From positions 12,847-76,846 of the IMG/VR virus record IMGVR_UViG_3300033150_002805: a stretch of DNA of 64,000 bases, one strand, 5' to 3'. Source of the stretch: a virus. Shown piece after piece: positions 1,237 through 30,171 of this stretch (positions are counted from its first letter, which is position 1; each line of letters opens with the position of its first letter). The translations under genes and the position numbers were made by a program. The notes under the pieces are model-generated. The model made no database searches, was not told the DNA's origin, and saw only the letters and a program-made list of their open reading frames with translations.

Positions 1237-2282
1237 GACAAATATCCTTTATTTTTAAACAAATCCTCTTTTTCAAAAGAACGACCCTTTATTTTTTTTA
1301 ACAACCGAGTTGTTGAATAGTTTGCTAATCTTGGAATAATCACTACCTTTCCACCATAATCTCTTACAAAATCATGTCCTATTACTGTTCGTTTAGTGTA
1401 ATCACCTCCTTTTACTAATACATCGGGTTTGATTCGTTTTATCAGACGTAAAGGATTACTTTCATTAAAAATCTCGACTTTATCAACATATTTTAAGGAC
1501 TCAAGAATTTTCTTTCGTTCTTCTTGATTATTTATCGGTTTTCGTTTTATTCTTGTTGCTGATGTATCAGAATTAAGACCAACTATCAAAATATCTCCTA
1601 ATTTTTTTGCTTCTTTCAACAAATAGATATGTCCCAAGGTTAATAAATCATAAACTCCATTTGTGAATACCACTAATTCTTTTTTATATACTGCACTATA
1701 AATATCTTTTCTTATTCCGCATTCAACTTCTGGATAACCAGATTTAATAAGTTTGAAACCTCTAGCTTCAAAGAATAAATTCAAACTTTCCTTTGTAAAA
1801 TAATGAAGATGTTCTCCAGTATCAAACTTAAAATGTTTCCAACCTCTTAATTTTTTTCCATCTGGAAGGATAGGTAAAGAAATGTAAACATAACGAGTCT
1901 TCTTAAATATCTTATCCAAAACTCTAAAATCTGGAATATGTTCCAAAACATCGCAAAAAAAGATTAGGTCATAAGATGTATGCCTAATCCCAGTATATTT
2001 TATTGGAAATTCACCAATATCAAAAGAATCAACTAAAACCCCTTTAGGAGAGAATTTAGTCAAAAAGTTGGCTCCTGCTCCATAATCCAAAACGATCTTT
2101 GGTTTCAACTCTTTAACAAAATTCCAGCGAACTTTATTTAGTTTTTTCGCTGTTTTCTCGTAATCTTTTGAAATTGTTTTCCAATATTCTTTATTATATC
2201 GAAACAAATTTTTCTCTTTTTCCATGGTGGGAATCTCTTTTAAGGTTAGAGAATCTCGGAAAGGTCTAATTCTCCAACCCAC
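1233..2282 (-). CDS. Class I SAM methyltransferase fused to heptose-1-phosphate adenylyltransferase (RfaE domain II/HldC); real start probably 2224
   Basis: N-terminal VLDYGAG and DVLEH; C-terminal FTNGVYDLLTLGH, GLNSD and KGGDY. Confidence 0.82.
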   Translation of the reverse strand: MGWRIRPFRDSLTLKEIPTMEKEKNLFRYNKEYWKTISKDYEKTAKKLNKVRWNFVKELKPKIVLDYGAGANFLTKFSPKGVLVDSFDIGEFPIKYTGIRHTSYDLIFFCDVLEHIPDFRVLDKIFKKTRYVYISLPILPDGKKLRGWKHFKFDTGEHLHYFTKESLNLFFEARGFKLIKSGYPEVECGIRKDIYSAVYKKELVVFTNGVYDLLTLGHIYLLKEAKKLGDILIVGLNSDTSATRIKRKPINNQEERKKILESLKYVDKVEIFNESNPLRLIKRIKPDVLVKGGDYTKRTVIGHDFVRDYGGKVVIIPRLANYSTTRLLKKIKGRSFEKEDLFKNKGYLS

Positions 2283-2400
2283 TTTCTTCTTTTTTTAATT
2301 CCTTGAGACCTTTCCATTTCATTGAGTTCAACGAATCTAACAAAGATAGATTCTCCCCCAATGAAAGACTCAAGGATGCTTAATCTATTGACTTTGAGAA

Positions 2401-4299
2401 TTACCAATCAGAACTTCCAGCGTATGCATACTGCCACATTCCAAAACCAGCATTTCCTCGCCAACTCACACCGAAATATATTTTCTTTCTCATGAAATCT
2501 TCCCAGGTATTTCCAGCATGAGTTTCAAATGTGATATCTTTTCTTAATTGTAGGATAATTGGTTTTACTATTCCATTGGTATCCATCACACACCAGAAGT
2601 TAGTTGGCACACGAGAAGTAACATATAAATCTAACAATCCTTTCATCACATTCGTTGCAAGTTTTGTACCTGATACCTCAGTTGGGAAATATTGACTATT
2701 CAAGATTTCTCTCGCCAAGAACATGTTATTAGGATGAACTACTAACAAGTTTGGCCTGATATCCATTTCATTTCCTTTATCATCTACATATTGCATCATT
2801 GTCTGAATAGCAGTCTGCAAAGCACTAAAACTGAAAGCTGTACCTGTTGCTATATTGGATTGAATTCCTGAACTACCAGATGAATGAGATGCTGAGAAGA
2901 AGGGCTGACCATCATAACAAGTGATATCCTTTCCCTCAAATAATCCAGTACCAGTAGATAAATTACCTTGACCCAAAAGGGTATAAACCAATCTACCCCA
3001 GAATCTTTTTGCCTTATCAGCTAAATCTCGAACTCTAATATTAATCTGCCCATAAAGCTCATCTTCCAATGCATCTTTATCAACTGCTATAGTGCTTTCC
3101 CAACTGTAGTTCTTGATGCTGAAATTGTGTTCGAGTAAAGCTTCAGGAACTCGTTCATCCTTCCATTCTTTTAGTTCAGGGACTCCACCTCTATTAACCT
3201 TTTATATTTCTATAAAAGCTAGACCATCTCATCCACTAAAAGTGGTCTGACGTATGGCCGTTGAGGATCTTCAATCTCTGATAATCTAAGATATCTAAAT
3301 CAGAATACGGTCTTGAATTTGATAAGGATAAACGCCTTTCACAAAAATCTTTTATGATAGCGATTTTCCCATTTAAATCAATAGTTTCAAATCTTTTACA
3401 AAATTTAAAACATCTTTTAAGACCTAATATACTTATAACATATTTTGGTTTATTCCGATTTTTATCAAATCGCTGGATATGATGAGGAATTTTTTTATTT
3501 TCAAAGAATCTTTGAATTGAATTTTTCCCAGTTTGAGAAGTAGTAAAGAATCTAATTCTAGGAATATACTTTGTTCGTTCACCCTTATAATTTCTTTTGA
3601 TTATAGTAGCACTACCATCTCCTTCCCAAAATCCCATCAACCAATATTTATCAATTTTCATTGTTGAAATCTTCTCTTTTTCTAAACTTGATTGAAAAGA
3701 TTCTTTATAATTTTGGCGAAGCTTTGGTTCTATTTTGAGACTCTCTTTTATAATCTCAGATTGATATTTTTTGATAACTAATTTGGGATTAATCAATTTA
3801 AGCCATCTGGAAACCTGTGGATCTCCTTTGATAAAAATAGAAGTTTGAATTCTATACCAAGATTTTCGTTTTCTAATCGTAAGATGAAATTTAATCTCAT
3901 TCAACTTAAGAAAATTGATATAACAATCAATAATCTTGGAATTAGTATTCACAAATCCTATTATCGGATTCCAATATTTTCTTTTCTGTTTCTCAAAAGT
4001 AAACCAACCTTCGGCATCAAATAATCCAGCGATATAAGATTGAATTTCCTGCTGATTGCCCGTTAAAATATCTTTCATATATTACCTAATTAGTTATGAA
4101 AGCTTTAGGGTTTTCCAGCATTTAGTCAGATTTTTCATGGTCAGGTGGTTTCTAACCATGCATATGGTTCAACGGATTTCCCTGATCTAATTAAAGTAGC
4201 AACTCTTTCCCATTCAGGAACGGTCATTTTCAGTTGTTTCATAAACTCCTTTCTCATTCCCGCAAGCAATAGATTAGGTATATCTGTTTTTGTTAACAT
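2401..4299 (-). CDS. Major capsid protein (Mu gpT-like), two exons 4154-4299 and 2401-3190, 311 aa after splicing
   Basis: Exon 1 MLTKTDIPNLLLAG...EPYAW joins exon 2 to give YAWLGGVPELKEW...NYSWESTIAVD...YDGQPFFSASH...GFGMWQYAY. 146+790=936 nt, in frame. Confidence 0.88.
3191..4153 (-). ncRNA. Group I self-splicing intron (963 nt) in the major capsid gene
   Basis: Exon 1 ends in U and the intron ends in G. The IGS CCACCUGACCAUG pairs with exon 1 CAUGGUU (U-G at the splice site) and with exon 2 AGGUGG (P10). Core elements: P AAAUGCUGGAAA, Q AAUCAGCAGG, R CUCAACGGCCAU, S GAUGAGAUGGUC. Confidence 0.9.
3236..4078 (-). CDS. Intron-encoded double-motif LAGLIDADG homing endonuclease
   Basis: YIAGLFDAEG and WLMGFWEGDG motifs; lies inside the intron. 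Confidence 0.9.
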   Translation of the reverse strand: MKDILTGNQQEIQSYIAGLFDAEGWFTFEKQKRKYWNPIIGFVNTNSKIIDCYINFLKLNEIKFHLTIRKRKSWYRIQTSIFIKGDPQVSRWLKLINPKLVIKKYQSEIIKESLKIEPKLRQNYKESFQSSLEKEKISTMKIDKYWLMGFWEGDGSATIIKRNYKGERTKYIPRIRFFTTSQTGKNSIQRFFENKKIPHHIQRFDKNRNKPKYVISILGLKRCFKFCKRFETIDLNGKIAIIKDFCERRLSLSNSRPYSDLDILDYQRLKILNGHTSDHF

Positions 4300-4305
4300 A
4301 GTTTA

Positions 4306-4833
4306 TTATCCACTCGAACAACTTGAACTGCAACTTGAGCTTGAACTCTCACTAGAACTAGACGAGCAAGAACTTGAAGAACTCCAAGATTCCTCTGTCC
4401 AAGTAGTTGAAGTAGCACAACAAATATCAACTTTTACTAAAGTAGAACTGATATAACCAACTACTACACCTACAAGTACTCCATTAGTAACTTGCTGTCT
4501 AAGTCCAACGGTATTATCATCAACTACAAATACCTGATGACCAACCCAAGATTGAGTAGCTCCAGAACATGGAAGCTGAAATACTCCGTTTCGGAATACT
4601 CTTACTCCTCTGGCTCCATCTGAGTCGGTATCTACGTCATCAGATAAAGAACGCTCAACAGCAATCCCAGCAAAAGTATAGCCAGCACTATCCGTTGCAG
4701 CATACAAATAACCATTGCTATTATTAGTAGTCACAATCGCTCCTTTATAAATATCTTCACCATTCTTAATCGGATAGTAGATTATATGTCCATCTTGACG
4801 TTTGTCTTCAAAGTCATCACTGAGTGCCATCAA
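4306..4833 (-). CDS. Capsid decoration/cement-like protein with a C-terminal Ser/Cys-rich tail
   Basis: Located between scaffold and MCP; IYKGAIV...FAGIAVE...GVF...VFVVDDNTV pattern; ends SWSSSSSCSSSSSESSSSSCSSSCSSG. Confidence 0.7.
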   Translation of the reverse strand: MMALSDDFEDKRQDGHIIYYPIKNGEDIYKGAIVTTNNSNGYLYAATDSAGYTFAGIAVERSLSDDVDTDSDGARGVRVFRNGVFQLPCSGATQSWVGHQVFVVDDNTVGLRQQVTNGVLVGVVVGYISSTLVKVDICCATSTTWTEESWSSSSSCSSSSSESSSSSCSSSCSSG

Positions 4834-4852: not shown

Positions 4853-7387
4853 TTAAAATGGAGTTGATTTTTCTTCCCTTTTTCCTTCTTTCTCTTTTTT
4901 AAATTCCTTATAAGCTTCTTTTTGAATATCTTCACTCAAACCCATTTTATCCATCTCTTCTTTTATTTCATCGGGAATTTTTTCTTCTTTCTTCTTATCT
5001 TCTTCTATAGTTCCGAATTCTTCTAAAGAGAAAACGGGACTTCTAGACTTCAAATACCTTTTTAAGGCTACATGGAGGTCGACCTTCCTTCCATCAGCTA
5101 ACTCAATTGGAGTATTTGAAGCTAAAAGAGGAAGTAGAAGTTCTTTTTCAACGGGAGTTACTTTCCCCTGTCTCAAAAGAGCTTCAAATGTCTTTTCAGC
5201 TTCGGCTAACTCAACTCCTTCTTTAGCCTTAGCTTCTTCGGATTCTTCTTCAGTTTTGGTCTCTTCAGTTTCAGTCTCTTCAGTTTTCACTTCCTCTTCT
5301 CCCTCGGTTTCCTCACCGACTTCTGAAGACTCAGTTTCTTCTGAAGTTTCTTCTGCTGAAGTTTCCTCTACCGAAGTTCTTTCCGAAGTATTTTCATCTT
5401 CATTTAATCTTATTTTCTTTTCAATTTTTTCTATTTTTTTTGTAATTTCATCAAGAGTTAAGGGTGGTTCTGCATTCACTATTGGAATTACCAGACTATC
5501 TTCAAATTCTTCTGATAAGGGAACAAAATTTCCTAATCCTTTAATGTAGGGTTCATTTACCAAGGCTGCATGAAATAAGGTTGGACCGACTTGTTCACCA
5601 GTATCTTTTTTAAGGTAATTTTCTACAAAGCTAGCAGAAATACCTTTAATAAGTCCTTTCTTGATTTTCTCAGCGATACTATCATCCTTAACATCAACCG
5701 TTGCTATCAGTTTATCTCCACCTTTAGATAATTCCAAATCAACTAATTCTCCGACATTCTTTGAAGGATCATCACCTGCTGGGTGCCCCAATGGAACAAA
5801 GACATTATCAATAACCTTATTTTTAAAATTCTTAAGCAATTTCTTCAATGTTTCTTTAGTTATTTTTAATATACCATCTCTTCCAGCTCCATGAAACCAA
5901 GTTCCTTCTCGTAACAATTCTTTTTTGAATTTGGTTCCTTCGCTTAATCGAATATCACCCGAATTGAAAACTTGATAAACTAATTTTTCATTTTCTGATA
6001 AGTTCTTCTTCTCTGGATAAGGGTAAGCTAAAGGTTGACCTACTCTTCTTAATTTATCAATCATAGTTCTGATTTTCTTAAGTTCAGTTAGTATCTTTTT
6101 ATCAGTTACCTTTTTGATCAATTCATCCAAAGAATCTTTGATTATGTCAATTGCTCCACCATCCTTCTTGATTCCTTTTGGATAACGATAAGGATAACCA
6201 TAAGGATAGCCGTAGGGATAACCATAGGGATAACCATAAGGATAGCCATAAGGATAGCCGTAGGGATACTTCCTATTTCTTTTTAATTTCTTCTCTACCT
6301 CTTTTGATTTCTCTTCTCCTTTCACTTTTCCTTTACAAATTTTCGCAGCCTCTTTAAAAGGAGTTCCTTTTTTCAACTCTTCTTTCATACAATCAGTATA
6401 AGCAGATTTTTCAAACTGCATTATTTTACCAGACTTTTTGACTTTTTTGCTACAGATTTTTGCTGCTTCCTTAAACGGAGTTCCTTTTTTGAGCTCTTTT
6501 TTCATACACTGAGTATAAGCTGATTTCTCAACATAAACTGGTTCAGCTAACTCTCTTTCTGTTCCTTCCTCCTCTTCATCTTCTTTATCATCATCGACTT
6601 CTTTCTCCTTTTCTTCTGGTTCTTCGGTTTCTTCCTCTTTTTCTTCCTCTTCTTCATCATTAGTTTCTTCCTCTTTCTCGGTTTCCTCTTCATCAGTTTT
6701 TTCATCAGTTTCCTCATCTTCTTCAGTTTCTATTTCATCAGTTTCTTCATCTATTTCATTTTTTTCTTCTGTTTCTTCCTCTTCCATCTCTTCAGTTTCC
6801 TCTTCGACTTCTTCTGGATTTCCTTCTTCAACCTCACTTAACTCTTCAAAATCTTCTTTTAAATTTTTCTCCATAATTTTTTCAGCCATATCAATGGCCT
6901 TTTTAATATACCATCGAATGACTTTAGCTTCTGGATTTGCACCTTGAGGTACCAATGAAACTTCCTCAATGCACAAATCCTTAATTAATCTTAACTTCAA
7001 ATCAGGAAATAGTTCGACCTTTTCACCATAATTCACTTGTCCTTTTACTGACAAGGAATTGAGTTCTCCTGACTTGACTTTTTCAATTATTGAAGGTTTT
7101 GATATTTCAACCTTAATCCAAATTCTACCTTTATCAAAATGACAATCGAGAACTTTTCCGATTATCTCCTTGGTATGATTCAAACAAAACTTTCCATTTC
7201 TTTTAAAATCTTCAACGCATTTTTTCAAAGCAAAATCTGTAATTATATCATTTTGTAAATCAAAATCATTCGCTGCTGCAAATCCTTCAAGAATAAATTT
7301 TCCTCCTTTTTCTTCTCTTTCATTTAGAAAAAGTGGAAAATTAAATTCTATTCTTGGATAATACAATAATTTATTCATAAGGGTCAA
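4853..7387 (-). CDS. Prohead protease/scaffold: HK97-type protease domain, acidic linker, YPYG repeats, Mu I-like protease/scaffold domain
   Basis: LEGFAA..DLQNDII..LNH..LSVKG..EEVSLV..GANPEA; second domain LGHP..KGISASF..LFHAALVNEPYIKGL. Confidence 0.8.
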   Translation of the reverse strand: MTLMNKLLYYPRIEFNFPLFLNEREEKGGKFILEGFAAANDFDLQNDIITDFALKKCVEDFKRNGKFCLNHTKEIIGKVLDCHFDKGRIWIKVEISKPSIIEKVKSGELNSLSVKGQVNYGEKVELFPDLKLRLIKDLCIEEVSLVPQGANPEAKVIRWYIKKAIDMAEKIMEKNLKEDFEELSEVEEGNPEEVEEETEEMEEEETEEKNEIDEETDEIETEEDEETDEKTDEEETEKEEETNDEEEEEKEEETEEPEEKEKEVDDDKEDEEEEGTERELAEPVYVEKSAYTQCMKKELKKGTPFKEAAKICSKKVKKSGKIMQFEKSAYTDCMKEELKKGTPFKEAAKICKGKVKGEEKSKEVEKKLKRNRKYPYGYPYGYPYGYPYGYPYGYPYGYPYRYPKGIKKDGGAIDIIKDSLDELIKKVTDKKILTELKKIRTMIDKLRRVGQPLAYPYPEKKNLSENEKLVYQVFNSGDIRLSEGTKFKKELLREGTWFHGAGRDGILKITKETLKKLLKNFKNKVIDNVFVPLGHPAGDDPSKNVGELVDLELSKGGDKLIATVDVKDDSIAEKIKKGLIKGISASFVENYLKKDTGEQVGPTLFHAALVNEPYIKGLGNFVPLSEEFEDSLVIPIVNAEPPLTLDEITKKIEKIEKKIRLNEDENTSERTSVEETSAEETSEETESSEVGEETEGEEEVKTEETETEETKTEEESEEAKAKEGVELAEAEKTFEALLRQGKVTPVEKELLLPLLASNTPIELADGRKVDLHVALKRYLKSRSPVFSLEEFGTIEEDKKKEEKIPDEIKEEMDKMGLSEDIQKEAYKEFKKEKEGKREEKSTPF
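6182..6269 (-). repeat. 12-nt tandem repeat encoding (YPYG)n
   Basis: Repeated ggataaccata/ggatagccgta units; the protein reads KYPYGYPYGYPYGYPYGYPYGYPYGYPYRYP. Confidence 0.9.
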
Positions 7388-7391
7388 GAGT

Positions 7392-10300
7392 TTATTTTGG
7401 TCTAGGCAATTTGGTCTCTTTGAAAACCCAAAAATTGCTTGTGTTTTCTCTTTCCAAGACCCATAAACCTTTTAATTTTTCGCCTTTAAACTCAAATTTT
7501 TTAAAAGAATCAGAGTCTTCATAAACAACTGCCTTTCCTTTGTCTATTATCTTAATATATGAACTCGTAGCTTTCGTAGGATTGGCATCCTCTATTCCTG
7601 GAGGCAATTTTGCCAATTCTTCCTTTGACATCTTTGCCCTTTCATTCTTTGGTGGCAAATACTGAGAAACTTCCATCCATTCTTTATATTTACAGGGTTT
7701 CCAAAGAGCGGTTACTTCCTTATTCTTCAAGGGATTCTGATTAAGAACAAAATGCATCAAGCCTGGCTGATCGGGGAAATTAAATCTTAGATCCCAATGT
7801 TCTCTAGAGACTCCCGCCCTAATAACCCTTTGCCCCCGCCACCAATGTCGTTGCAAAACAAAGGGAACTATCCTTATCTTCTTAACCTGTAAAAGTTCAA
7901 TCATAATCATTTTCATATCATTAGGCCGTTTTTCCAACCAAGTTATGGCATCTTTCAACCATTCTTTCTTAAATGGATGAAGTTCTTTAAACTCTTGGAG
8001 TGCTTTCTCAACCCTTTTGACTTTTTCTGGATAAGGAGTTCGAAGCCAGAAAGTTAAAATCTGCTGGGACAAAATATAGCGATAAGCAGCTTTTGCCCAA
8101 TTTGCACCTGGGTTCAATTTTTTCTCAACGAGAACTTTTCCAAGTTTCTCAACCAATTTATCTCGCACCTCTATTCTTTTTTTCTCATCATCGAATTTCC
8201 AATATTGAAATTCTTTAGGAACTTTTTTTCTTATCTTTTCTGGTAAAGCAGAAACTTCTTTTGGAGGAATCCATTTCTTATCAACAGCCGCATCTGAGAT
8301 CACATAAGGAGTTTCATCTAACGGCTTAACGAGGAACCACGGTGCCTCTTCCCTAAATTTTGTTTCCCTTGCTGGAGGTATGACTTCTTGTTTTTCTATT
8401 TTGCCTCGAAATTCAGCAGGTCTTAGTTGTCTGAAAAACCATCTGCCCTTAAGTTTACCGCCAGAAAAGAAATACTCATGAAAATAAGGTTTTTGAGCAC
8501 CATATTGGCAATAACCTTTATCAATAATATGGAAAACTCCTGGTGCCGTTTTTGTTGCCCCTGGTGAACCCACTGGAACTATCCCTTCGACATTCAACCA
8601 CTCAATAGGCTCAGCACTTTTCCGCATCGCAGCCAATTCAGCATATTTTTTCTTATACCCAGGTTTAATCCCAGGTCTTAACTTTGGCACTCCTTTTTTC
8701 CAGTCAATTTTCCAAATATCTTTCGAATCTAGTTCTTTTGCTTGTTTCATTGTAGTCACTGGTTCTTTAATCGCTCCCTTCACCATATCTGCAATAGTCC
8801 AACCCAACAAATAATTATTCTGTTTAATTCGAAGATCACTATGACAAGACTTTAATCTATAATGATGCTGAATAACATAAGGATATTTCTTTTCCACTTT
8901 CGGGTATTCCATATATGGATCGTGTTGTTTCTCAACTAATTCTTTAGACACTTTCTCATAAAGTTTCTTTGACCATTTTTTCATCTTTTGAGGTTCAAAT
9001 TCATGTTTCATCCGTTTCTCCTTCACCCTCTTTTTTATTTCGTTATAAATAATCCTTGCTAAACTAATAACCTGTTTCTCTGTGTATTTGAATTTGTTTC
9101 CTTCTTTGATTCTAGAATACCAAGCATTCACTATTCGCCAATCATCGGCTAATTGCTTATTATTCGGTATCTTGGGATTATATTTGATGTCCTTGATTTT
9201 TTCTAACTCAGAAAGATAAATAATCTTTCCTTCTTTCGTAATCTCCTTCTCCTGTAAACAATAATTCTTCTTTGCTCGCTCAATCGCTTCCTTAACTGTA
9301 TCGGCTTTCCTATTTACCTTACGCATCACTCTTGGTGCCCAAAGACTTATTCTCCAAGTATCATCTTTCAAATCATGTTCGACATTCAGAGTTTCACCCT
9401 CAATCTCTAGAACATCACCCTTATCAGCTTTTAAGGAAGTAGAGAAAGTTCTACCAGAACGATGATAGAAAACATTGCCAAGCTCTTCTGTTTTCATTTT
9501 ATATTTGCCAGGTTCTAAACCGAAATAATAGTTATATACCCCTTTCACTTTAGTCTCTTTAATATCAAGAACTTTGCCATAAATTGCTGTTGAATTGTGA
9601 AATTTTACCATTCCACTCCGTATACCTTTGAGATTGAATTTGAAGTCTTTTGTCTTGCAAACATTGCCTTCTGAACCTGGTAGACGCCTTAAAAACTCTG
9701 TATGCTTTCTTAATTTCTCTCTGTTCTTCGAAAGAAGATAAGGAGCAAAATTCAATTTTATCTTAATATTTGGGATTTTCCAAGTTCTTTGTTTGAAGGG
9801 CAAAGATTCAAGTAATTTCAATCTTTTTTCAAAAGGTTCATTATGAATATCAACTTTGAAATAGGGCATATCATAAACATTAGCAACGACATGAGAATCA
9901 TCAGGTATTCCTTTCTGATGAATATAACCAGCAATTACTTCTCTTGGTTTATGGTCATTATCTTCCCACCATTCCAATTCAGCCATCAATACACAATCTT
10001 CTTTAGTTAACTGTTTTACTTCTTTAACCAAAGTTGGTAGCCTATGAGTTATTACTTCACCATCTTCTGAAAAGATTTTCACTTCTTCTCCTTTTTTATG
10101 AATTTCTGCATTAAACCCATCATACTTCTTGGTCGAATAGAAAGGATATTTCCCCATATTCTCCATAACTTCTATGAACAAATCAATACTTTGTCGTTTT
10201 TCTGGATAATATCCTCTGGTTGGTTTTAGGGGCAAGAAAAATCTGAATAATTTTATCTTGTCTTCTCTTGCTGAAACCTCAGCATCCTTGATTGCTGAAG

Positions 10301-12092
10301 TAACTCGTGGTTTTTCTCTTAATTGTTTTTCGAAATCAGACAACCTAAGCATCCTATCCTTACTTCTTAACATCACTAAATTATAAAGTGGAATAGCATT
10401 TGTGAAAGGAGTTGAAAACTTATCATAAACAAAATGCAATCTTCTTCTAATCCACCAAGGGACGCTTCTAGCGATTCTGAATTCAATAATTCTTCTCATA
10501 TCAAAACTCAACCACTCTGGTAGCAATATATCCAAATCGCCTCTAGTTGAACCCTGGTTCACTATTCCTCCTGTTAAATATATCAAAGGTCTTTGAATTA
10601 TGAAATCTTTAAAATAAGGAAGGATTTCTTCCAAAATCATAAGTTTTCCCATTCTTTTTCCCGAAGTGTAAATTGGTGCCGAACCTTCACTCAAATTAAT
10701 GACAATGTTATCAGTAGCTATTATAATTGGAACTTTAGTTAACTCTCGAATTTTAGTTAACAGAACATCATCTCCATAACTCAATGGTTCTTTGCCTAAA
10801 TGAGTAACTACTATTCTTTTAACTTTGCCTGGCAAATACCAATTTTTTAATTGATTTATCAAACTACTATGCCCGTATGGTTCACCCTTTTTACCTTTCC
10901 TTCTTGCCAAGGTCCTGGTAAGAGAGGAGCCATCAATAATTGCCAAATCTAAATCTTTGACATACTTCTCTCGATCTCCAGAATGCCAGCCCAAAATATC
11001 GGTTGCTTGCAAAACTCTCTTATCTCCCATTTCAATTAGGAAAACATGCATTTTGGCTCGAATGGAATGTAAGACAGGAATTGGAGTTATCTTAAAAGGG
11101 CCAAGGTTAAAAGTCTTATAAGATTCGTATTTTGTCCTCGCATCTATATTGAAATCTTTATAAAGATTTGGAACTTCTTTTTCAGTTTCTTTGGAAACTA
11201 TAATAGCCATATCCTTCAGACCCAAAAGATGATCAGGATGAGAATGACTAACCAAAATATAATCAGGTTTGATTTTCTCTAAATTTCCTTGATTTATTTT
11301 TCCATAATCCACTAGCAGTCTCTTACCCTTATACTCATATAAGATTGAAGTATGAAATCTGTGTCCAGGACCTTCTTCTTCAATCAAACCTTTGGTTCCA
11401 TAAAATGTTACTTTATAACCCTCTTTGCTAAACCTCTCCTTGAATTTTTTTGCTTCCTTATCCAAATCGTCATCAAAAGGTTCATATTCCAATTTTCTCT
11501 TTAATATTTCATCTTTAAGAAGGATATGATAGTTAATGCAATCTTCTTTTGAAGCTGCCGATTGTTGCCAAATCTTATGGATTTCTCTGTGAAGTTTCAA
11601 AAGTTCTTCATCACTCAATTTTGCTGGATCACCAAAGTTCATACTCTTAAAAGTTACATTTTCTAACCAAACCTGAGCTCCTTTAGGTCTTAAAATTTCT
11701 TTGGGTGGATCGAATTTTGAAATGAGTTCTATTGGATAATAATATAAGAATTTTTCTTTTGACCACCATCGTTTTCTTTCATCTTCTGAAATTTGATGAA
11801 ATTTTCTCAACTCTTTAAACTTTCTTAGATTAATTTTTCTACCTTCCTTTATTTCAATAATTCCTAAAGCTTTATTATCTTCAATCAAATAAACTGGAAT
11901 CCCGATGTATTTAGTGAATTTCCTCGAGCTAACAATTGCTTTTTTCTTTCCTTTCCAAATCAAAGTTCCATGAGGTTTAACCAAGATTTTTCCAGGCAAC
12001 AAAACAGTTCTCCCAGGTTGCAAAAGCTGAGGAATATCTGACGGAACTAATAATTTTTTTAACTTTTTAGTCATCTTTTCTTGTTTTAGCAT
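7392..12092 (-). CDS. Multidomain protein: ASCH-like + MBL-fold hydrolase + nucleotidyltransferase + ATP-dependent DNA ligase + two LigD 3'-phosphoesterase-like domains; probable start 12074
   Basis: PHGTLIWKGKKKAIV (ASCH-like); SHSHPDH (MBL); LTGG..GDLDILL (NTase); KYDG, VYDM, SEGNVCK (ligase); YVIQHH..HSDLRI and FVLQRH..HWDLRF, IIDKG..KLKGLWVL (LigD PE). Confidence 0.78.
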   Translation of the reverse strand: MLKQEKMTKKLKKLLVPSDIPQLLQPGRTVLLPGKILVKPHGTLIWKGKKKAIVSSRKFTKYIGIPVYLIEDNKALGIIEIKEGRKINLRKFKELRKFHQISEDERKRWWSKEKFLYYYPIELISKFDPPKEILRPKGAQVWLENVTFKSMNFGDPAKLSDEELLKLHREIHKIWQQSAASKEDCINYHILLKDEILKRKLEYEPFDDDLDKEAKKFKERFSKEGYKVTFYGTKGLIEEEGPGHRFHTSILYEYKGKRLLVDYGKINQGNLEKIKPDYILVSHSHPDHLLGLKDMAIIVSKETEKEVPNLYKDFNIDARTKYESYKTFNLGPFKITPIPVLHSIRAKMHVFLIEMGDKRVLQATDILGWHSGDREKYVKDLDLAIIDGSSLTRTLARRKGKKGEPYGHSSLINQLKNWYLPGKVKRIVVTHLGKEPLSYGDDVLLTKIRELTKVPIIIATDNIVINLSEGSAPIYTSGKRMGKLMILEEILPYFKDFIIQRPLIYLTGGIVNQGSTRGDLDILLPEWLSFDMRRIIEFRIARSVPWWIRRRLHFVYDKFSTPFTNAIPLYNLVMLRSKDRMLRLSDFEKQLREKPRVTSAIKDAEVSAREDKIKLFRFFLPLKPTRGYYPEKRQSIDLFIEVMENMGKYPFYSTKKYDGFNAEIHKKGEEVKIFSEDGEVITHRLPTLVKEVKQLTKEDCVLMAELEWWEDNDHKPREVIAGYIHQKGIPDDSHVVANVYDMPYFKVDIHNEPFEKRLKLLESLPFKQRTWKIPNIKIKLNFAPYLLSKNREKLRKHTEFLRRLPGSEGNVCKTKDFKFNLKGIRSGMVKFHNSTAIYGKVLDIKETKVKGVYNYYFGLEPGKYKMKTEELGNVFYHRSGRTFSTSLKADKGDVLEIEGETLNVEHDLKDDTWRISLWAPRVMRKVNRKADTVKEAIERAKKNYCLQEKEITKEGKIIYLSELEKIKDIKYNPKIPNNKQLADDWRIVNAWYSRIKEGNKFKYTEKQVISLARIIYNEIKKRVKEKRMKHEFEPQKMKKWSKKLYEKVSKELVEKQHDPYMEYPKVEKKYPYVIQHHYRLKSCHSDLRIKQNNYLLGWTIADMVKGAIKEPVTTMKQAKELDSKDIWKIDWKKGVPKLRPGIKPGYKKKYAELAAMRKSAEPIEWLNVEGIVPVGSPGATKTAPGVFHIIDKGYCQYGAQKPYFHEYFFSGGKLKGRWFFRQLRPAEFRGKIEKQEVIPPARETKFREEAPWFLVKPLDETPYVISDAAVDKKWIPPKEVSALPEKIRKKVPKEFQYWKFDDEKKRIEVRDKLVEKLGKVLVEKKLNPGANWAKAAYRYILSQQILTFWLRTPYPEKVKRVEKALQEFKELHPFKKEWLKDAITWLEKRPNDMKMIMIELLQVKKIRIVPFVLQRHWWRGQRVIRAGVSREHWDLRFNFPDQPGLMHFVLNQNPLKNKEVTALWKPCKYKEWMEVSQYLPPKNERAKMSKEELAKLPPGIEDANPTKATSSYIKIIDKGKAVVYEDSDSFKKFEFKGEKLKGLWVLERENTSNFWVFKETKLPRPK

Positions 12093-12186
12093 CTAAAGGC
12101 CAACCGCACTTGCTACAGTGGCTATTTTCAGCTTTATTTTTTGTTCCACACTTAGGACAAATTTTTTTGCTTTCGGTAGATGCCAT
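12067..12186 (-). CDS. 39-aa zinc-ribbon protein (not in ORF track)
   Basis: MASTESKKICPKCGTKNKAENSHCSKCGWPLDAKTRKDD; its stop overlaps the ATG of the ligase gene. Confidence 0.7.
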   Translation of the reverse strand: MASTESKKICPKCGTKNKAENSHCSKCGWPLDAKTRKDD

Positions 12187-13642
12187 TGGTAAATTTTTCA
12201 CCTAATTTATAACATTTGGCTTCTAAATCAGGCTCATATTTTAAATTCAATAATTTTTCTTTTAAGACCTTTGGGGTTCTTGGTGCATTGATATTCAGTT
12301 CATCAGCTCTCTTCTTTTTCCCTTTTTCAAAAGCCAAAAGGGGTTTTTTTTCTTTTTCAACTTTCTCTTTCATCGCCCATTTTAATCTCAATGCTTTTGC
12401 TGTTTCTGTAACAACTTCATTAACAAAACCATCTGGTAATTTCTCTCCAGTTCTCATTATTTGATTGAATACCTCTCTTAAGAATGCTTGAGAAGCATCA
12501 GCTAGTTTTTCAAACCGAATTTCTGGATAAGATTGAGTTCCAAAATTCCAATCTATCAAAGGAGCTATCGCATAAGTATTCAGAGTGGCTTCCATTTGTT
12601 TCATAATTGATTGAATAGCTAAATCAACATATTGAGAGGCAGAAGTGCCTTTTCCATAAGGATAAGCATACTTGATTTGGTCTAAAATCTGAACCAAGGC
12701 TGACTTTGTCATTTCCCTGTTGTGATGATCAATCAATGGTAATGGATCAAAACCTTTTTCACCACCCCTTTGGATTTCCAATTCAATCCCAGGTGGCAAA
12801 GTTATTCTAGAATTTATTCCCAATGTATCCACAACCTCTTCTGCTTTTTTCCTTTCAGCCGAAGTGAGAGTTTGATTAACTTTTAAAATTTTTAAACCCA
12901 AAGTATCTATCTCAGCTTTTTTATGAGAAATATAATAAAGTTTATGTTTTTTGTCATAATGATAAAATGCAGTTTTCAAAATGGATTCTCCATAAAGCCA
13001 ATGTTTCTCTTTTTGAAAAGTGAAAAGCATGCACTTTTCTGGAGGAATATTAACATCAACAGAATACGATCCAAAAGTTGCAGTTTGATGAGCACCAGCA
13101 AATCCACCATGCCGATCAGCTTTTAATTCTATAGTTTGAGCGTCTCTCGGAGCTAATTTCTTCCATCCAACTTTGCCTTTATATTTTCCCTCTTCAATAA
13201 TTCTAGCAACTTTTTCATAGAGCCGAAATCCTTCAAAAATAGCTCTTGTCATATCAGAAATGATAAAAGGAAGTGGTGTAGTCATACCACCTAAATGAGG
13301 GGGTGATAAAAAGATAGTTTCAATAAAATCTCTTTCTCCTCTATCGTTTTCAGCGGGAAGAATATGAAAAGGAGTTGAAACTATTGGAAGTGTTAAAAGT
13401 CTAACTATTGCTTGAACCTCTCCATCGTTTCTCTGCATTTCAATGTAGGTTTGAGGTCCAAGATCGTCTGGATTTTCTTCAGTATCATAAGCTCCAATAA
13501 CTCCTTCACGAGCAATTCCCAACTCTCTAGTGAATTCTTCAAGAGTCAAAACTTTTCTCTTCTCTTCTTTTTCTACCTTTGATTCCTTTTTAGATTTTAA
13601 TATAAAATCAAAGAAAGACACGGTTATTGAACCTAGGTTCAA
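12152..13642 (-). CDS. Portal protein (DUF935/Mu gp29-like)
   Basis: YIEMQRNDGEVQA, WKKLAPR, LYGESILK, IAPLIDWNFG..YPEIRF; first gene of the head module. Confidence 0.8.
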   Translation of the reverse strand: MNLGSITVSFFDFILKSKKESKVEKEEKRKVLTLEEFTRELGIAREGVIGAYDTEENPDDLGPQTYIEMQRNDGEVQAIVRLLTLPIVSTPFHILPAENDRGERDFIETIFLSPPHLGGMTTPLPFIISDMTRAIFEGFRLYEKVARIIEEGKYKGKVGWKKLAPRDAQTIELKADRHGGFAGAHQTATFGSYSVDVNIPPEKCMLFTFQKEKHWLYGESILKTAFYHYDKKHKLYYISHKKAEIDTLGLKILKVNQTLTSAERKKAEEVVDTLGINSRITLPPGIELEIQRGGEKGFDPLPLIDHHNREMTKSALVQILDQIKYAYPYGKGTSASQYVDLAIQSIMKQMEATLNTYAIAPLIDWNFGTQSYPEIRFEKLADASQAFLREVFNQIMRTGEKLPDGFVNEVVTETAKALRLKWAMKEKVEKEKKPLLAFEKGKKKRADELNINAPRTPKVLKEKLLNLKYEPDLEAKCYKLGEKFTNGIYRKQKNLS

Positions 13643-13664
13643 AATCCATAGGTGCTTAGCAAGG

Positions 13665-14204
13665 TTATAAATTAATTATTAGACCGTTAATATTATAGCT
13701 TCCAGAAAAATTATAATGGAAATCAGTACCAGCAGCGGTAAAACCGAGAGTATCTGATGAAACATCAAAAACTAAATTTTCAGTGCTATAAGTAGTAGAC
13801 CAATCCGAAGGATAAACTACCGAATAAGGTTTCCACCAAGGTTTTTCATAATGATCACCTTCATGGATAATTGCTTCAATCTTCACAACGGAAGTCTCAC
13901 GGGCAAGCTTGTCGACTTTTTGTCTTTCTTCAATCAAATCAAGCCTACCCTGTTTAAAATCCTCTAAATCTTTAGTAAGAATTTTTATTTTTTCTTGTAA
14001 TCTTTTAACTTTTTCTTTCAAATTCTCTCTTTTTCTCAATGTCTCCAAAATTATTTTTTTAATTTTTTCTCTTTTCTCTTTTTCGATGTCTTTAGAGGCT
14101 TCATCGAAAGCCTTTTTCACCAAACTTTTATCCATATTTTTCAACCTTGGGTCGCACCTATGGATTCTTTCTTCAATATAACAAGTAAGTAAGATAAAGG
14201 TCAA
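13665..14204 (-). CDS. Hypothetical coiled-coil protein (probable start about 14135, MDKSLV)
   Basis: ORF with coding-like composition downstream of a TTGACC promoter-like site. Confidence 0.55.
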   Translation of the reverse strand: MTFILLTCYIEERIHRCDPRLKNMDKSLVKKAFDEASKDIEKEKREKIKKIILETLRKRENLKEKVKRLQEKIKILTKDLEDFKQGRLDLIEERQKVDKLARETSVVKIEAIIHEGDHYEKPWWKPYSVVYPSDWSTTYSTENLVFDVSSDTLGFTAAGTDFHYNFSGSYNINGLIINL

Positions 14205-14380
14205 GTGTTCTCAATCCATTATGAATATTAAATAGAGAACCATAAGTTCAAAGCGGATTTGGAATTTTGATATCAGGTGAAAGAAAGAGGAGAGTTCTCT
14301 TTTTTCTCTTTCTCTTTTTTTTTCTATAATACACATTCTTCCATATCTCTTGCTCCTATCTGTACTCTCTCTCATTTGAG

Positions 14381-14417
14381 TTATCCACTTGACAGGGGTC
14401 TTTGGGTATGATAATAT
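14381..14417 (+). promoter_or_regulatory. Sigma70-type promoter overlapping a DnaA-box-like site, at the strand divergence
   Basis: TTATCCAC-TTGACA(14389)-17 bp-TAATAT with an extended TG. Confidence 0.7.
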
Positions 14418-14640
14418 AAAATAAAGGTCAATAATAATTAAAAACAAATAAAAATATGATTAAGCACTTAACATGGGCGATGATCCAAAAGAGAAAAAGA
14501 AAAGAGAAAATTAAAAAGATATTGTTTGGAATTATTGGATGGCTGGGTTTGTTTTTGATTGCTTGTTTGTTGCTCCCGTTTGTTTGGTTTCTGTTTGTTT
14601 TAATGTTTTAAAGGTCGTAAAAAAAAATCTTTTAAAAACT

Positions 14641-14883
14641 ATGAATCCACGCATTAACAACTATTATTTTGTAGGCTTTCATTTTGAATCAAATAGAGGA
14701 TACATTACTCCTGAATATATGGTCATTTTTGCTGAAAGAAAAAAAGACGCTGAAAATAAAGCTAATATGATGAAAAAAAGTTTTGAAAAATCAGGAAGAG
14801 AAATTAGAGTAATAACTTTTTATCGTAATAAATACATAAAAGAGGCTGAAGAATTGGTGAAAGAAAAGAAATTTATATCTTAA
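14641..14883 (+). CDS. Hypothetical early protein (start MNPRINN)
   Basis: ORF; AAGGTCG motif and A-rich leader upstream of 14641. Confidence 0.5.
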   Translation: MNPRINNYYFVGFHFESNRGYITPEYMVIFAERKKDAENKANMMKKSFEKSGREIRVITFYRNKYIKEAEELVKEKKFIS

Positions 14884-15006
14884 TTGATCCTTTTAGGTTT
14901 TTTGCTTGCTTGCTTTATTGTCCAGGTATTTTAAAGCAAGCATCAAAAGATCTAAAAGTTCATTAACAATCTTTAAATATGGCGAGGGTTTAAAGATTTA
15001 GAGAAA

Positions 15007-15612
15007 ATGAAAAATTATCCAAATCAAATTAGGCAAGAAGCCTACAAGTTATTTAACAATACTTTTAATTGTTTAGATTTTGAACTATTGAAAAAAGCAA
15101 TCGGAGAAGATACTATAATTGATTATATTGAAAAACCAAGCGAGGAAATTTTAAGAAAGGAAGCGAAAGATAATTTTGATGAGAAAGAATGGGAAGAAAA
15201 AACAGAAGAAGAAAAAGAGGAAGCAACGCTGACATTCTTTGAGGAAAGCGAACACTACCCCATGTGGTCTACAGTCTTCGAAGCGAAGGATGAGTTTATA
15301 TCTCGAAAGATAATGAGAGGAATTGATGAGTTATATAATTTAGGAATCGGGGTAATTGCTCCTACTGAGTACACTAACGCTTGTTTATTTATCGCTGGTG
15401 CTGGTTATGATTTTTATGATGCTCATTGGATACCTTTATTTATCCACTGGGGTTGGATTGATGAAGAAAAAATGAAAGAAGAAGAAGAAAGAAACAAAAT
15501 AAAATTAACTGACTGGAAAGAGTTTGGCGAAACACTTGAAAAATTGACAGAGAACAGAGACAAAACAATTAAAAGACACTCCAAGGGATTACTAAAAGCC
15601 CTAAAACTTTAA
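15007..15612 (+). CDS. Hypothetical phage protein
   Basis: 201-aa ORF with YPMW and GAGYDFYDAHWIPL motifs. Confidence 0.65.
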   Translation: MKNYPNQIRQEAYKLFNNTFNCLDFELLKKAIGEDTIIDYIEKPSEEILRKEAKDNFDEKEWEEKTEEEKEEATLTFFEESEHYPMWSTVFEAKDEFISRKIMRGIDELYNLGIGVIAPTEYTNACLFIAGAGYDFYDAHWIPLFIHWGWIDEEKMKEEEERNKIKLTDWKEFGETLEKLTENRDKTIKRHSKGLLKALKL

Positions 15613-15720
15613 CCGCCTTTTCGCAGGTTTCACCTGCCACAAGCCCGCTAATGTTTGATGCCTTGCCACATTATCGGGCTTTTGTTTTGAAAAAATTTAA
15701 TCAGAAGTAAATAATCCAGC

Positions 15721-15859
15721 ATATAGCCGAGTAGTCATATAGCCAAAACTTTACATAGCCGAATTGAAATATAGCCCGAATTTATCATAAAAATAGTTAT
15801 CCACTTGACAAGGTTGCTTGATTTGCTAAAATAAAATAAGAGAGTTATCTTGTGGATAA
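15721..15859 (+). promoter_or_regulatory. Four direct repeats at 16-bp period, a promoter and DnaA boxes; candidate origin or regulatory region
   Basis: A(T/C)ATAGCC at 15721, 15737, 15753 and 15769; TTGACA 15805 and TAAAAT 15827; TTATCCACT 15797; TGTGGATAA 15851. Confidence 0.55.
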
Positions 15860-16167
15860 CTCCATAATAAAAGAGTGTTGGCTCTTTTAAAAAATATGAG
15901 GTCAATAGGGAAAAAATTTAAAAACTTAGTAAAAAAAAGAACATTAGAACTTTTAAAAAAAAGAGATAGAGAAAGGGAAGGCGAAAATATGAGGTATTAT
16001 GGTTTGGATAATGAGATTGTAGAAAGTTTACCAGCCGAAATTTGGAATACTTGGGAAGGTGCTGATAGTGAAATAAGAAGAATAATTGATGAAACTATAA
16101 AAAATTTTGATATTATAGTTTAAATTGTAAATTATATCTTTTATCAGTTAGCATCATAACCAGCAAT

Positions 16168-16452
16168 ATGATGCTAACAATAAAGGATATAATAAAAGTA
16201 AATAAAATTATGAGAATAATACAAATAAAGTTTATCTGTCCAAAATGTCATAAACTAAAAAAAGAAAATAGATTTGCTTGTGCGGATGAAGAAGAAAATA
16301 AAAAAGCAGAAAAAAAAGTTTTTAAACAAGGTTTTATTTGTCAGGAATGTTGGAAAAAAGAAAAAATGCCGTTTAGATTTGAAAGTTTAATAAATAAGAG
16401 AAATAAACTGGCGGGTTTGAAAAGTAGAAGACAAGCGATTGAAAATTCTTAA
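16168..16452 (+). CDS. Small zinc-finger-like protein
   Basis: CPKC...CQEC. Confidence 0.55.
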   Translation: MMLTIKDIIKVNKIMRIIQIKFICPKCHKLKKENRFACADEEENKKAEKKVFKQGFICQECWKKEKMPFRFESLINKRNKLAGLKSRRQAIENS

Positions 16453-16550
16453 TATCTAATATATCTAATATCTAATAAATCTAATATCTAATATCTAATA
16501 TCCGATCTAATACTTAATACTTGTTATCTTAATATCCTAATACTTAATTA
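16449..16550. repeat. Degenerate 7-bp tandem repeat (TAATATC)n, intergenic
   Basis: taatatctaatatatctaatatctaataaatctaatatctaatatctaatatcc... Confidence 0.85.
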
Positions 16551-16589
16551 AATTTTAGAAGGAAAAAAAAATAATCAATATATAAAATT

Positions 16590-16820
16590 ATGAAGAGAAT
16601 AAAAAAATTACTTCCTAATAAATACTATCTTGATAAGAATTTTTATCGTTTAAGGGATGAGATTTTAGAGGCGTTTAAGGAAGATCAGAAAAAGTTTAAT
16701 AATGATATTTATTCTATGTTTGGCAAATCAGAACCAGAAATAATAGTTAATGAAATTATTACTATGACTTTATATAGTATAAAGCCGAAATATAATTTAA
16801 AAAAGAAAAAATTTTATTAG
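16590..16820 (+). CDS. Hypothetical protein
   Basis: ORF with A-rich leader. Confidence 0.5.
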   Translation: MKRIKKLLPNKYYLDKNFYRLRDEILEAFKEDQKKFNNDIYSMFGKSEPEIIVNEIITMTLYSIKPKYNLKKKKFY

Positions 16821-17067
16821 TTCTTTGTGATGCTGATAACTGAAAGAATTAGTTGTTGAATCTCATCAGCCCATTTTATTCTAATCATTCACTATAATTT
16901 TAGAAGAAATTAAGATTTAATTTTTGAACCCAGGTTCAATTTTAAATCTCTTGAAAGGAGTGAACCAAAATATCAAATTAACCATAAATATCTTTAAAAC
17001 TATTAAATGAAACTAATATAATTATAGCAAATCAAAAGGTTGAAATCAAATTAACACATTTAATTAT

Positions 17068-17685
17068 ATGTTTCTAAATAAATATAACTTTTTAGTTGAG
17101 AAATTTGCTCTAAAAGATAGTTCCAGAATTGAATTGACAGGAATTTTCGTTTCACCAAAAGAGACTTGTGCCACCGATGGCGTTAAAATGATTAAGGTAG
17201 ATACTCCAAAAAACTTTAAACTTGATGATTACCCAAAAATACCAAACAAACCGAAACCATTAACTAATTTTAAGAGTTTTATTTTGCCAAAGGAAAAAGC
17301 AAAGGATATTCTGAATTTATTTAAGACAAGAGAAAAAGATCTCGCTTTGCCAATTTTGAATAATGCTATAATAGTTAGAAATGATAAAACAGGGGTGGAA
17401 ATAGGCATGACTGATTTAAAAAGTTGGAATAGTATATTCAGTCAAAGAATTGAGGGTGAATATCCCAGATATAAGGATTTATTCGTTGAAAGAGGCAATT
17501 TTATTGAAATAGAGGTTGATGTAAAATTTTTAAAAGATATAATAGATTTTTATACCGCTTTTCAGGATAAAACTCATTTGAAGATAAAAGTTCCAACTAA
17601 ACCAAATGAACCGATTAGATTTGAAATGACAAGAAGAGATGAACAACAAGCCAAAGCACTTTTAATGCCAATTAAGAGTGAATAG
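17068..17685 (+). CDS. DNA sliding clamp (beta-clamp)-like protein
   Basis: R..LTGI, ATDG.KM, IEGEYPRY and C-terminal ALLMPIK motifs typical of DnaN domains. Confidence 0.7.
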   Translation: MFLNKYNFLVEKFALKDSSRIELTGIFVSPKETCATDGVKMIKVDTPKNFKLDDYPKIPNKPKPLTNFKSFILPKEKAKDILNLFKTREKDLALPILNNAIIVRNDKTGVEIGMTDLKSWNSIFSQRIEGEYPRYKDLFVERGNFIEIEVDVKFLKDIIDFYTAFQDKTHLKIKVPTKPNEPIRFEMTRRDEQQAKALLMPIKSE

Positions 17686-18030
17686 GTTTCTGATTACGGG
17701 TTCTCATAGTGCTGGATATGAGAACCCACATCAGAAACCTATCGCAAGAATTCCAAAATCTTTAAAAGATACTGATAAGATTATCTGTTTTGAAAAAAAA
17801 GTTAAGTGAGAACCCAGAAGCCACCTTCTACCGTTTCAATATCTTAACAAACCCAAGTCCATTATCTTATCTGATATCTTAAAAAAGATTTTAGATAATT
17901 GCTTGTGAGAAGTTTCTGATGACAATTTGGAAAGACAAATTGGCTTGGTAGGAAAGACTACCACCTTGAAAATTAGATTTTTAACTGAATAGAGATGTTT
18001 CGGTGGCTTTGGTCTCTATTCTAACCTCCA
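17683..18030 (+). ncRNA. Candidate structured RNA or cis-regulatory leader with alternative long-range pairing
   Basis: Hairpin 17683-17741; competing long inverted repeat out to 17921; two hairpins with GAAAGA loops at about 17923-17963. Confidence 0.45.
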
Positions 18031-29481: not shown

Positions 29482-30171
29482 ATGAAACCGTATTACGAAA
29501 AAAATGGACAAACAATTTTTCATGGAGATTGTCTCAAAATAATGAAGCAGTTTTCCGATAAGAGTTTTGACCTCTGCCTTACCGACCCACCATATGGAAT
29601 AAGTCAAAAAAGTGGTGGTTTTAGAGGCAAGGAGTTAGATTTTGGAAAATGGGATAAGTTTACAAAAAAACAATTAAAAAATTTATTAAGACAGATTATT
29701 AGAGTAATCAGAGGAACTATTTTTATGTTCTGTAGTGCAGAGCAATTATCGTTTTTATTAACAGAATTGAAGAAAAAAGATTTTTTAACTAGACAGCTCA
29801 TATGGTATAAACCTACTGCTTTTTCAATGAATGCTGACAAAATGTATATGTGGGCAACTGAAAATATTATTTGGGCAAAAAAGAGGAAAGCAAAATTTAA
29901 TCCACGACTTAAAAGAAATTTATTTGTTTGTAATTCGGAATCAAATCAAAGATGGCATAAGACTCAAAAACCCATTAAACTGATTAAAGAATTTATTTTA
30001 GATGCCACTGATGAAAACGATACTATCCTTGACCCCTTCATGGGAAGTGGTACAACTCTTGTCGCTGCCAGACAACTTGGCAGGAAAGCGGTGGGAATAG
30101 AAATCAATCAAAAATATTGTGAGATAGCTAAACAAAGGTTGAGACAAGAAACTCTTAATTTAAAATCATAA
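29482..30171 (+). CDS. N4-cytosine/N6-adenine DNA methyltransferase (beta class)
   Basis: TDPPYG, HKTQKP, ILDPFMGSGTT, GIEI. Confidence 0.92.
   Translation: MKPYYEKNGQTIFHGDCLKIMKQFSDKSFDLCLTDPPYGISQKSGGFRGKELDFGKWDKFTKKQLKNLLRQIIRVIRGTIFMFCSAEQLSFLLTELKKKDFLTRQLIWYKPTAFSMNADKMYMWATENIIWAKKRKAKFNPRLKRNLFVCNSESNQRWHKTQKPIKLIKEFILDATDENDTILDPFMGSGTTLVAARQLGRKAVGIEINQKYCEIAKQRLRQETLNLKS

Follow-up and report, generated by a model that had tools for sequence, protein, structure and literature searches.

A predicted end-healing and ligation polyprotein in the head module of an uncultured virus, a candidate capsid cargo linked to the prohead protease

What is a very long chain of predicted nucleic-acid enzymes doing among the head genes of a virus? 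The question is raised by a single gene of the uncultured tailed virus recorded in IMG/VR as IMGVR_UViG_3300033150_002805, whose contig measures 76,846 bp and has direct terminal repeats. The window analysed here is the 64-kb stretch formed by contig bases 12847-76846; all coordinates refer to it, and residues are numbered on the encoded 1566-aa polyprotein (P0001). The gene occupies positions 7392..12092 of the minus strand, as a single unbroken frame of 1566 codons started by ATG, and its product is composed of five enzyme-type or binding domains and three helical modules, among them a predicted ATP-dependent DNA ligase and two domains with the fold of the LigD 3'-phosphoesterase (PE). The reading favoured here, to which we assign a probability of about 0.5, is that the product is a polyvalent protein, incorporated into the capsid and possibly processed by the prohead protease, which would heal and seal DNA ends at infection.

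The polyprotein gene lies directly downstream of a portal gene of the Mu type (12152..13642, minus strand; PF06074, 8e-32; PHROG 113) and is followed by the gene for an 844-aa prohead protease/scaffold (4853..7387, minus strand; PHROG 976, 80, 3270 and 9427), which starts 4 nucleotides past the polyprotein stop codon. A cement-like gene (4306-4833, minus strand) and a Mu gpT-like major capsid protein (MCP) gene complete the head module, and the gene arrangement (portal, polyprotein, protease, cement, MCP) is shared by the window and the related loci L002-L005. A preliminary description, made from the letters of the window, had reported a multi-domain single chain of 1566 residues at the position usual for MuF and minor head proteins, and had pointed to synteny in relatives as a check. 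The unbroken frame, and the Mu-type portal and prohead protease on its two sides, agree with that account; the portal-polyprotein-protease order is kept in the close relatives L002-L005 and in the virus ANMV-1, where the corresponding protein comes right after the portal.

The ligase core spans residues 604-954 (9231..10283, minus strand) and is made of an adenylation domain and a putative OB-like C-terminal part, recognised by PF01068, by matches in PDB and by motifs I-VI. PF01068 matches residues 639-831 with 60 bits, its curated cut-off being 26.2 (65 bits in the search of the whole genome), and the best solved relatives found in PDB are archaeal and eukaryotic ligases of the Lig1 type. Motif I, K656-Y-D-G, aligns with the KYDG of 2hiv. 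Residues K656, D658, G659, E705, D741, E808, G809, K813, K830 and D931 show no alternative in the family wherever they are covered. Some motifs deviate from the usual form: motif I has N at the position of R, DGE is replaced by MAE in motif III, and KxK by KFH in motif V. The family profile hidden Markov model (HMM) reaches residue 954, and P920 and D931 are conserved within a PRV...R/K-x-D-T stretch; at this end the assignment is made at the level of sequence, and no Pfam OB-domain match was obtained. Taken together, these data support a predicted ATP-dependent DNA ligase domain.

The C-terminal 517 residues were modelled with AlphaFold2 (AF2) from an alignment of 30 sequences; the mean confidence score (pLDDT) is 77.8, and it exceeds 90 for both beta domains, PE1 and PE2. 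For PE2 (residues 1409-1563; 7404..7868, minus strand), Foldseek returned 7 significant matches, all of them LigD PE structures, the next match having a probability of 0.25. Structural comparison by VIA gave Z 16.1 to 3p43, 119 of whose 124 residues were superposed with a root-mean-square deviation (rmsd) of 1.9 A; six PE entries scored between 11.8 and 16.1, and the next match 4.5. The sequence profile of the same domain (A7) finds 3p4h at E 5.8e-8. PE1 (residues 1061-1298; 8199..8912, minus strand) is LigD PE-like with large inserts. When the whole PDB is searched with its profile of 26 sequences (A3), the five best matches are the LigD-PE sequences, at E between 9e-4 and 0.075, and hhalign pairs PE1 with PE2 at a probability of 96.6% (E 5e-10). 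The presence of two LigD 3'-phosphoesterase folds is thus supported, by structure and profile for PE2, and by profile and hhalign for PE1; they form a very diverged branch of the LigD phosphoesterase superfamily.

The two domains carry a His-His-Asp-Arg set that aligns to the HxDxR of 3p43/3p4h and corresponds to the metal/phosphate site of LigD, H42, H48, D50 and R52 in P. aeruginosa. In PE1 these residues are H1077, H1084, D1086 and R1088, invariant wherever covered among 96 unique sequences of about 35% identity. In PE2 they are H1416, H1432, D1434 and R1436, and the full set is kept in 82 of 158 unique copies of the repeat. Compared with LigD, the spacing is 1 residue longer in PE1 and about 10 longer in PE2. 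Many relatives (L019, L023-L025, L027, L028, L030, L034, L035, L039, L041 and L042) have three PE-like repeats, with the His-His-Asp-Arg set lost in the middle repeat and kept in the first and third.

The N-terminal part of the chain was examined on an AF2 model of residues 1-640, which is the basis of the structural matches of both its folded domains. An MBL-fold phosphodiesterase with an HSHPDH motif occupies residues 228-462 (10707..11411, minus strand; PF12706, 1.5e-9, 38 bits against a cut-off of 27; PHROG 392). VIA places it close to the ElaC homologue 1zkp (Z 22.4), PhnP (22.1) and Apyc1 (18.9), as well as to ZipD/tRNase Z and RNase J, with Z 20-22 for 1zkp, 3g1p and 2cbn; its membership of the tRNase Z/PhnP branch is therefore supported. 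Residues D262, H283, H285, D287, H288, H342, D365, H408 and H431 have no alternative in the family where covered. An ASCH (PUA-like) domain at residues 24-150 (11643..12023, minus strand) is under the Pfam cut-off as a single sequence (19.6 bits, cut-off 21.2). Its profile of 16 sequences (A4) reaches TTHA0113 (2dp9/1wk2) over its full length, 117 positions, at E 8e-6, and its model superposes on the Zymomonas ASCH protein 5guq with VIA Z 10.5 and rmsd 2.8 A over 114 residues; its presence is supported as well. The catalytic residues of the ligase, MBL and PE domains are conserved across 19 to 158 unique family sequences, which argues for enzymes under selection rather than relics, and judged by these residues the three kinds of domain look like working enzymes.

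Between the MBL and ligase domains, residues 482-595 (10308..10649, minus strand) may form a minimal nucleotidyltransferase (NT) of the Pol-beta type. Here a motif was found, G-G-x9-D-x-D ... H-x-V-x-D, with G508, G509, D519, D521, H553 and D557 conserved, and language-model look-alikes in the Atlas, scoring 0.89-0.92, are named nucleotidyltransferase or PF01909. A Pfam search with 15 members gave no match, a profile search of PDB nothing significant (best nucleotidyltransferase, E 0.56), and pLDDT in the region is 30-65. From the domain list of the preliminary description, ASCH, MBL, ligase and two PE domains could all be recovered, the C-terminal one now modelled as a PE and its partner recognised by profile ranking and by its alignment to PE2. 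The unusual MAE of ligase motif III was also read correctly there, whereas the nucleotidyltransferase does not go beyond its motif.

The three helical modules are HEL1 (residues 158-213; 11454..11621), which recurs in relatives and is helical in the AF2 model; HEL2 (986-1050; 8943..9137), a DDWRIV..WY segment seen in the sequence, for which a PDB search returned nothing meaningful; and the linker HEL3 (1302-1394; 7911..8189), limited to the close clade. All three are on the minus strand. In close relatives, the place of HEL2 between ligase and PE1 is taken by a Dam methyltransferase, by another segment of about 110 aa, or by both.

The core of this architecture is widespread. A word-indexed search identified 28 homologues of 965 to 2241 aa, which share a core (HEL1)-NT-LIG-PE1-PE2, where LIG is the ligase. 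Around this core, the presence of ASCH, MBL, Dam (PF02086) and C5 (PF00145) methyltransferases, an AdoMet decarboxylase domain and inteins varies from one homologue to the next. Among the added domains, DNA methyltransferases occur most often, and MBL is paired with ASCH. Within IMG/VR, 41 related loci carry the same modules, fused or as neighbouring open reading frames (ORFs), in conserved order. A scan of 1.84 billion representative sequences with the PE1 profile HMM gave 1224 clusters (50% identity) at E<=1e-3, of which 574 reach E<=1e-30; the few named members read 'hypothetical protein' or 'ATP-dependent DNA ligase'. Six matches were obtained in GTDB genomes, all on short contigs from archaeal metagenome-assembled genomes (MAGs).

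ANMV-1 (KP703175, L049) is the only deposited virus found with the module. Its 866-aa NT-LIG-PE1-PE2 protein comes right after gene 1913-3193, which matches Phage_portal_3 at 3.2e-22. An iterated portal HMM gave matches only in four close relatives, so that among distant loci adjacency to the portal is shown for ANMV-1 only. PHROG annotation of the distant relative L044 was uninformative. In the ANMV-1 record, the portal gene is annotated as a 'MutT-like phage hydrolase', and the next one merely as an ATP-dependent DNA ligase.

Apart from this gene order, the indirect evidence for entry into the capsid comes from the other neighbour. The N-domain of the prohead protease is adjacent (less than 100 nucleotides) or fused to the ORF of the PE module in 29 of the 41 IMG/VR loci, and lies further downstream in 4 more. 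In 7 of the 28 homologues it is on the same chain, in agreement with precomputed PF14550/PF04586 labels. Since the protease/scaffold must itself be inside the procapsid, this repeated link is the main argument for the polyprotein entering it too. Possible cut sites were also found. The T4 prohead protease gp21 cleaves at L/I-x-E, and the pattern L-[SA]-E occurs just twice in the 1566 residues, as L-S-E467 after the MBL domain and as L-S-E960 after the ligase, that is, at domain boundaries. The two copies fall within the 8-12% of the chain not covered by domains; they are retained in P0004-P0008 and P0015 and conserved in the close clade. Seven copies are present in the protease/scaffold. These motifs would fit sites of the L/I-x-E type, although the numbers are small.

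In the protease/scaffold, a protease domain at the N-terminus is accompanied by acidic tracts and GYPY repeats. In closer view, the N-domain is XkdF/HK97-like, the Glu/Asp-rich tracts are long, the (G)YPY repeat is present eight times, and a unit 'EKSAYT(Q/D)CMK(K/E)ELKKGTPFKEAAKIC' occurs twice; the C-terminal half is again protease-like (PHROG 976).

According to the favoured reading, the polyprotein would be made late, alongside the capsid proteins, and would enter the procapsid with, or via, the prohead protease/scaffold encoded just downstream. Once there, it might be cleaved at L-S-E/D sites, to release ASCH-MBL, NT, ligase and PE-PE pieces, and these would act on the viral genome within the particle or on entry. 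The two PE domains and the MBL domain may clean blocked 3' ends, bearing a 3'-phosphate, a ribonucleotide or a cyclic phosphate, and would leave nicks or breaks for the ATP-dependent ligase to seal. Methyltransferases carried on the chain in relatives may add protection from restriction; their fusion points to a conflict at the level of DNA. Delivery of multi-domain phage proteins together with DNA is an established strategy for polyvalent proteins (PMC5512222). Of the proposal in the preliminary description, that the protein is packaged and then ejected to close the genome into a circle or mend breaks left by restriction or CRISPR nucleases, packaging is the part with indirect support.

Several points weigh against this reading. 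The virus is uncultured and the proposal is read from its genes; the idea of processing is built on two to four motifs. No Phage_Mu_F match was found in the polyprotein at E<=1, nor any other recognised head-anchor domain in the domain search. Pfam LigD_N (PF13298) did not match the isolated C-terminal pieces at E<=10, nor was it found in the genome search, in which a control genome was matched; with this model silent on both domains, the PE call is based on structure and custom profiles. Ligation requires ATP or a pre-adenylated enzyme, which would limit turnover within a capsid. Since a search of the 76.8-kb virus genome with PF01068 gave no match other than the polyprotein ligase, this enzyme could equally serve replication or maturation. 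ASCH and an MBL domain of the tRNase Z/PhnP type are more typical for RNA or nucleotide substrates. Finally, the positions of LigD His84 and Tyr88 (E-D-H-P...Y segment) correspond, in HMM alignments, to E1161 and W1165 in PE1, with E or Q at the former in the family, and to K1468 and W1472 in PE2. With the His84 equivalent absent from both domains, LigD-like chemistry cannot simply be assumed, and the alignments suggest that the PE chemistry may differ from that of LigD.

The last of these points could be taken to mean that PE-PE is a structural or scaffolding component of the head, descended from an enzyme, and that the polyprotein is a fusion of convenience with no role in repair. The PE module does stand consistently beside the protease/scaffold, and the middle repeat of the three-repeat relatives is devoid of the His-His-Asp-Arg set. 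The PE1 set is nevertheless invariant, half of all repeat copies (82/158) retain all four residues, and the active sites of ligase and MBL are intact; a purely structural role is, in our judgement, very improbable.

The RNA-like character of the N-terminal domains suggests a kit directed against RNA-based or signal-based defence. ASCH would bind RNA, and MBL would open 2',3'-cyclic phosphates or destroy cyclic-nucleotide alarm signals; further on, PE would remove 3'-phosphates or 3'-ribonucleotides, NT would rebuild 3' ends, and the ligase would rejoin RNAs, for instance tRNAs that host anticodon nucleases or HEPN RNases have cleaved. The structural neighbours of the MBL domain (tRNase Z/ElaC, PhnP, RNase J, and Apyc1 at Z 18.9) fit this scheme, as do the pairing of MBL with ASCH in relatives and the nearest solved ASCH structure, 5guq, which is described as a single-strand RNase. 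LigD PE is also active on 3'-ribonucleotides. The scheme lacks a 5'-kinase, however: no such domain was found, though RNAs cut by RNases bear a 5'-OH. The ligase is of the DNA-ligase family, and DNA methyltransferases are the extra domains most often met in relatives. A faint precomputed label for PF23023 (Apyc1) on the polyprotein would point to signal destruction, but this family gave no match when searched directly, and the label was interpreted as a weak signal arising from the MBL fold. On balance, an RNA or signal function of this kind appears unlikely. A PADLOC search gave no match.

The status of the ligase as the sole one of its genome bears on a third possibility, that of a late-expressed maturation enzyme which is not packaged. 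Ligase and end-cleaning domains would close the nicks and gaps of replicated concatemers, which would give the terminase intact DNA to package, and the head-gene neighbourhood would reflect co-regulation only. ATP for ligation is available in the cytoplasm, no head anchor is recognised, and many relatives encode the module as ordinary ORFs, separate from one another. Co-regulation alone can hardly explain a protease fused in 7 of 28 homologues and adjacent or fused in 29 of 41 loci. Moreover, methyltransferases on the same chain recall packaged proteins of the Dar and polyvalent types, of which phage P1 DarB is the classic example. We regard a maturation enzyme as possible, and give it a limited but real chance.

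The favoured reading, a packaged polyvalent protein, can be set against systems already described. Polyvalent proteins, as defined by Iyer, Burroughs, Anand, de Souza and Aravind (2017), combine 2-15 distinct, mostly enzymatic domains in one phage or plasmid polypeptide, with variable architectures, and the text of that paper names no ATP-dependent DNA ligase, LigD-PE, ASCH or MBL component (PMC5512222). The protein described here resembles them in having many unrelated enzymatic domains on one very long phage chain, in a domain content that is shuffled among the 28 relatives, in the frequent partnership with DNA methyltransferases, and in the position of its gene in the head module, beside the portal. 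It differs in that no MuF/PBECR anchor was detected, the physical link being to the prohead protease. A literature search for packaged or head-module ligase or LigD-PE, Asgard virus papers included, found no published description.

A second comparison is with bacterial LigD (POL-PE-LIG, working with Ku) and with the split archaeal set of Methanocella for non-homologous end joining (NHEJ), whose PE structure is 5dmp. ATP-dependent ligase and PE-fold domains are common to all, here on one chain, and so are the PE fold and its His-His-Asp-Arg metal/phosphate site. Unlike these systems, the virus has neither an AEP polymerase nor Ku, its PE is duplicated, with altered His spacing and no equivalents of His84 and Tyr88, and the gene belongs to a viral head module and encodes extra MBL, ASCH and NT modules. 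A search of the entire virus record for the LigD polymerase domain (AEP POL, PF21686), with a limit of E<=1, gave no match, and neither did one for Ku (PF02735), although Ku might be provided by the host. Because the virus encodes neither, canonical NHEJ was rejected as an explanation.

The ANMV-1 protein AJP62006 ('ATP-dependent DNA ligase', 866 aa) shares the NT-LIG-PE1-PE2 core and the place directly downstream of the portal gene; it lacks the ASCH, MBL and helical modules, is about 34% identical over PE1, and its PE domains are unannotated in the record. The internal proteins of T4 and Alt are targeted to the capsid, cleaved by gp21 at L/I-x-E and injected with the DNA. The proposed entry into the head via the prohead protease/scaffold, and the L-S-E motifs at domain boundaries, are reminiscent of them; there is no relation in sequence, and the cargo here would consist of predicted nucleic-acid repair enzymes.

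Among cultured phages, Microbacterium phage Magritte (OR553905, L050) is the nearest by its portal; there, a hypothetical protein of 1991 aa is encoded at 11945-17920, between the genes for portal and scaffold. Neither a ligase nor a PE domain was found in it, only a weak GNAT match, and Magritte was therefore rejected as a cultured model for this cargo. Its protein may be a polyvalent head protein with other cargo, in a cultivable phage.

Should the polyprotein be packaged and active, uncultured viruses forming a very large group would bring enzymes for repairing DNA ends along in their virions. As cargo for counter-defence or genome maintenance, such enzymes would constitute a new class. The loading route would also be new, with the prohead protease in place of MuF, as would the highly diverged branch of LigD phosphoesterases, in which the second half of the active site is different. 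Compact ligase and end-cleaning modules, some of them from hydrothermal (Guaymas) samples, would also become available and may have practical use. Without packaging, what remains is a viral ligase with unusual fusions, of modest interest.

A broader proposal, which in its full extent we consider doubtful, is that the tailed viruses of archaea, and possibly of bacteria, include a large lineage, so far unannotated, whose capsids contain a Ku-independent machine for end healing and end joining. It would combine a Pol-beta-type NT, ligase and duplicated PE with an optional MBL nuclease and methyltransferases, would be loaded via the prohead protease and released by proteolysis, and would repair breaks in the incoming or long-stored genome. 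The sources of such breaks would include restriction enzymes, CRISPR nucleases and environmental damage. In function it would be a viral counterpart to LigD, as well as to the end-processing set of eukaryotes, made up of Artemis, Pol X, Lig4 and PNKP.

Indications on the host diverge. A homologue with 71% identity is found on a 34-kb contig labelled as a Hodarchaeales MAG, and the six GTDB matches are archaeal as well. Pulling the other way, the nearest cultured relatives of the portal are phages of Gram-positive bacteria, and the window contains SLT and PG_binding_1 matches. The latter is the C-terminal domain of a 714-aa protein (42202-44346, plus strand), which also includes a LAGLIDADG segment, probably an intein; near its gene, an SLT lytic-transglycosylase-like protein is encoded at 40165-40719 (plus strand). 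Domains directed at peptidoglycan do not fit well with the Hodarchaeales label that the contig of the closest homologue bears.

Other features of the window are reported for completeness. The MCP gene (2401-4300, minus strand) is interrupted: exon 1 ends near '...YAWLETT' with a stop, and reading resumes at 'EWKDERVPEAL...', while an uninterrupted homologue is present in L004. The inserted DNA, about 1 kb long, contains a LAGLIDADG ORF at 3236-4078, and the Rfam model Intron_gpI is matched at 3200-3355 over its full length, below threshold (24.8 bits, E 8.6e-4, cut-off 50). A TnpB/IS605 OrfB-type gene (PF01385 and PF07282; 31822-32934), a free-standing LAGLIDADG ORF (33460-34284) and a stand-alone N6/N4 DNA methyltransferase (29482-30171) are all on the plus strand. 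Directly behind the capsid gene, at 457-2282 on the minus strand, a PfkB-like kinase and a fusion of a methyltransferase with a cytidylyltransferase are encoded, enzymes of the heptose-nucleotide type.

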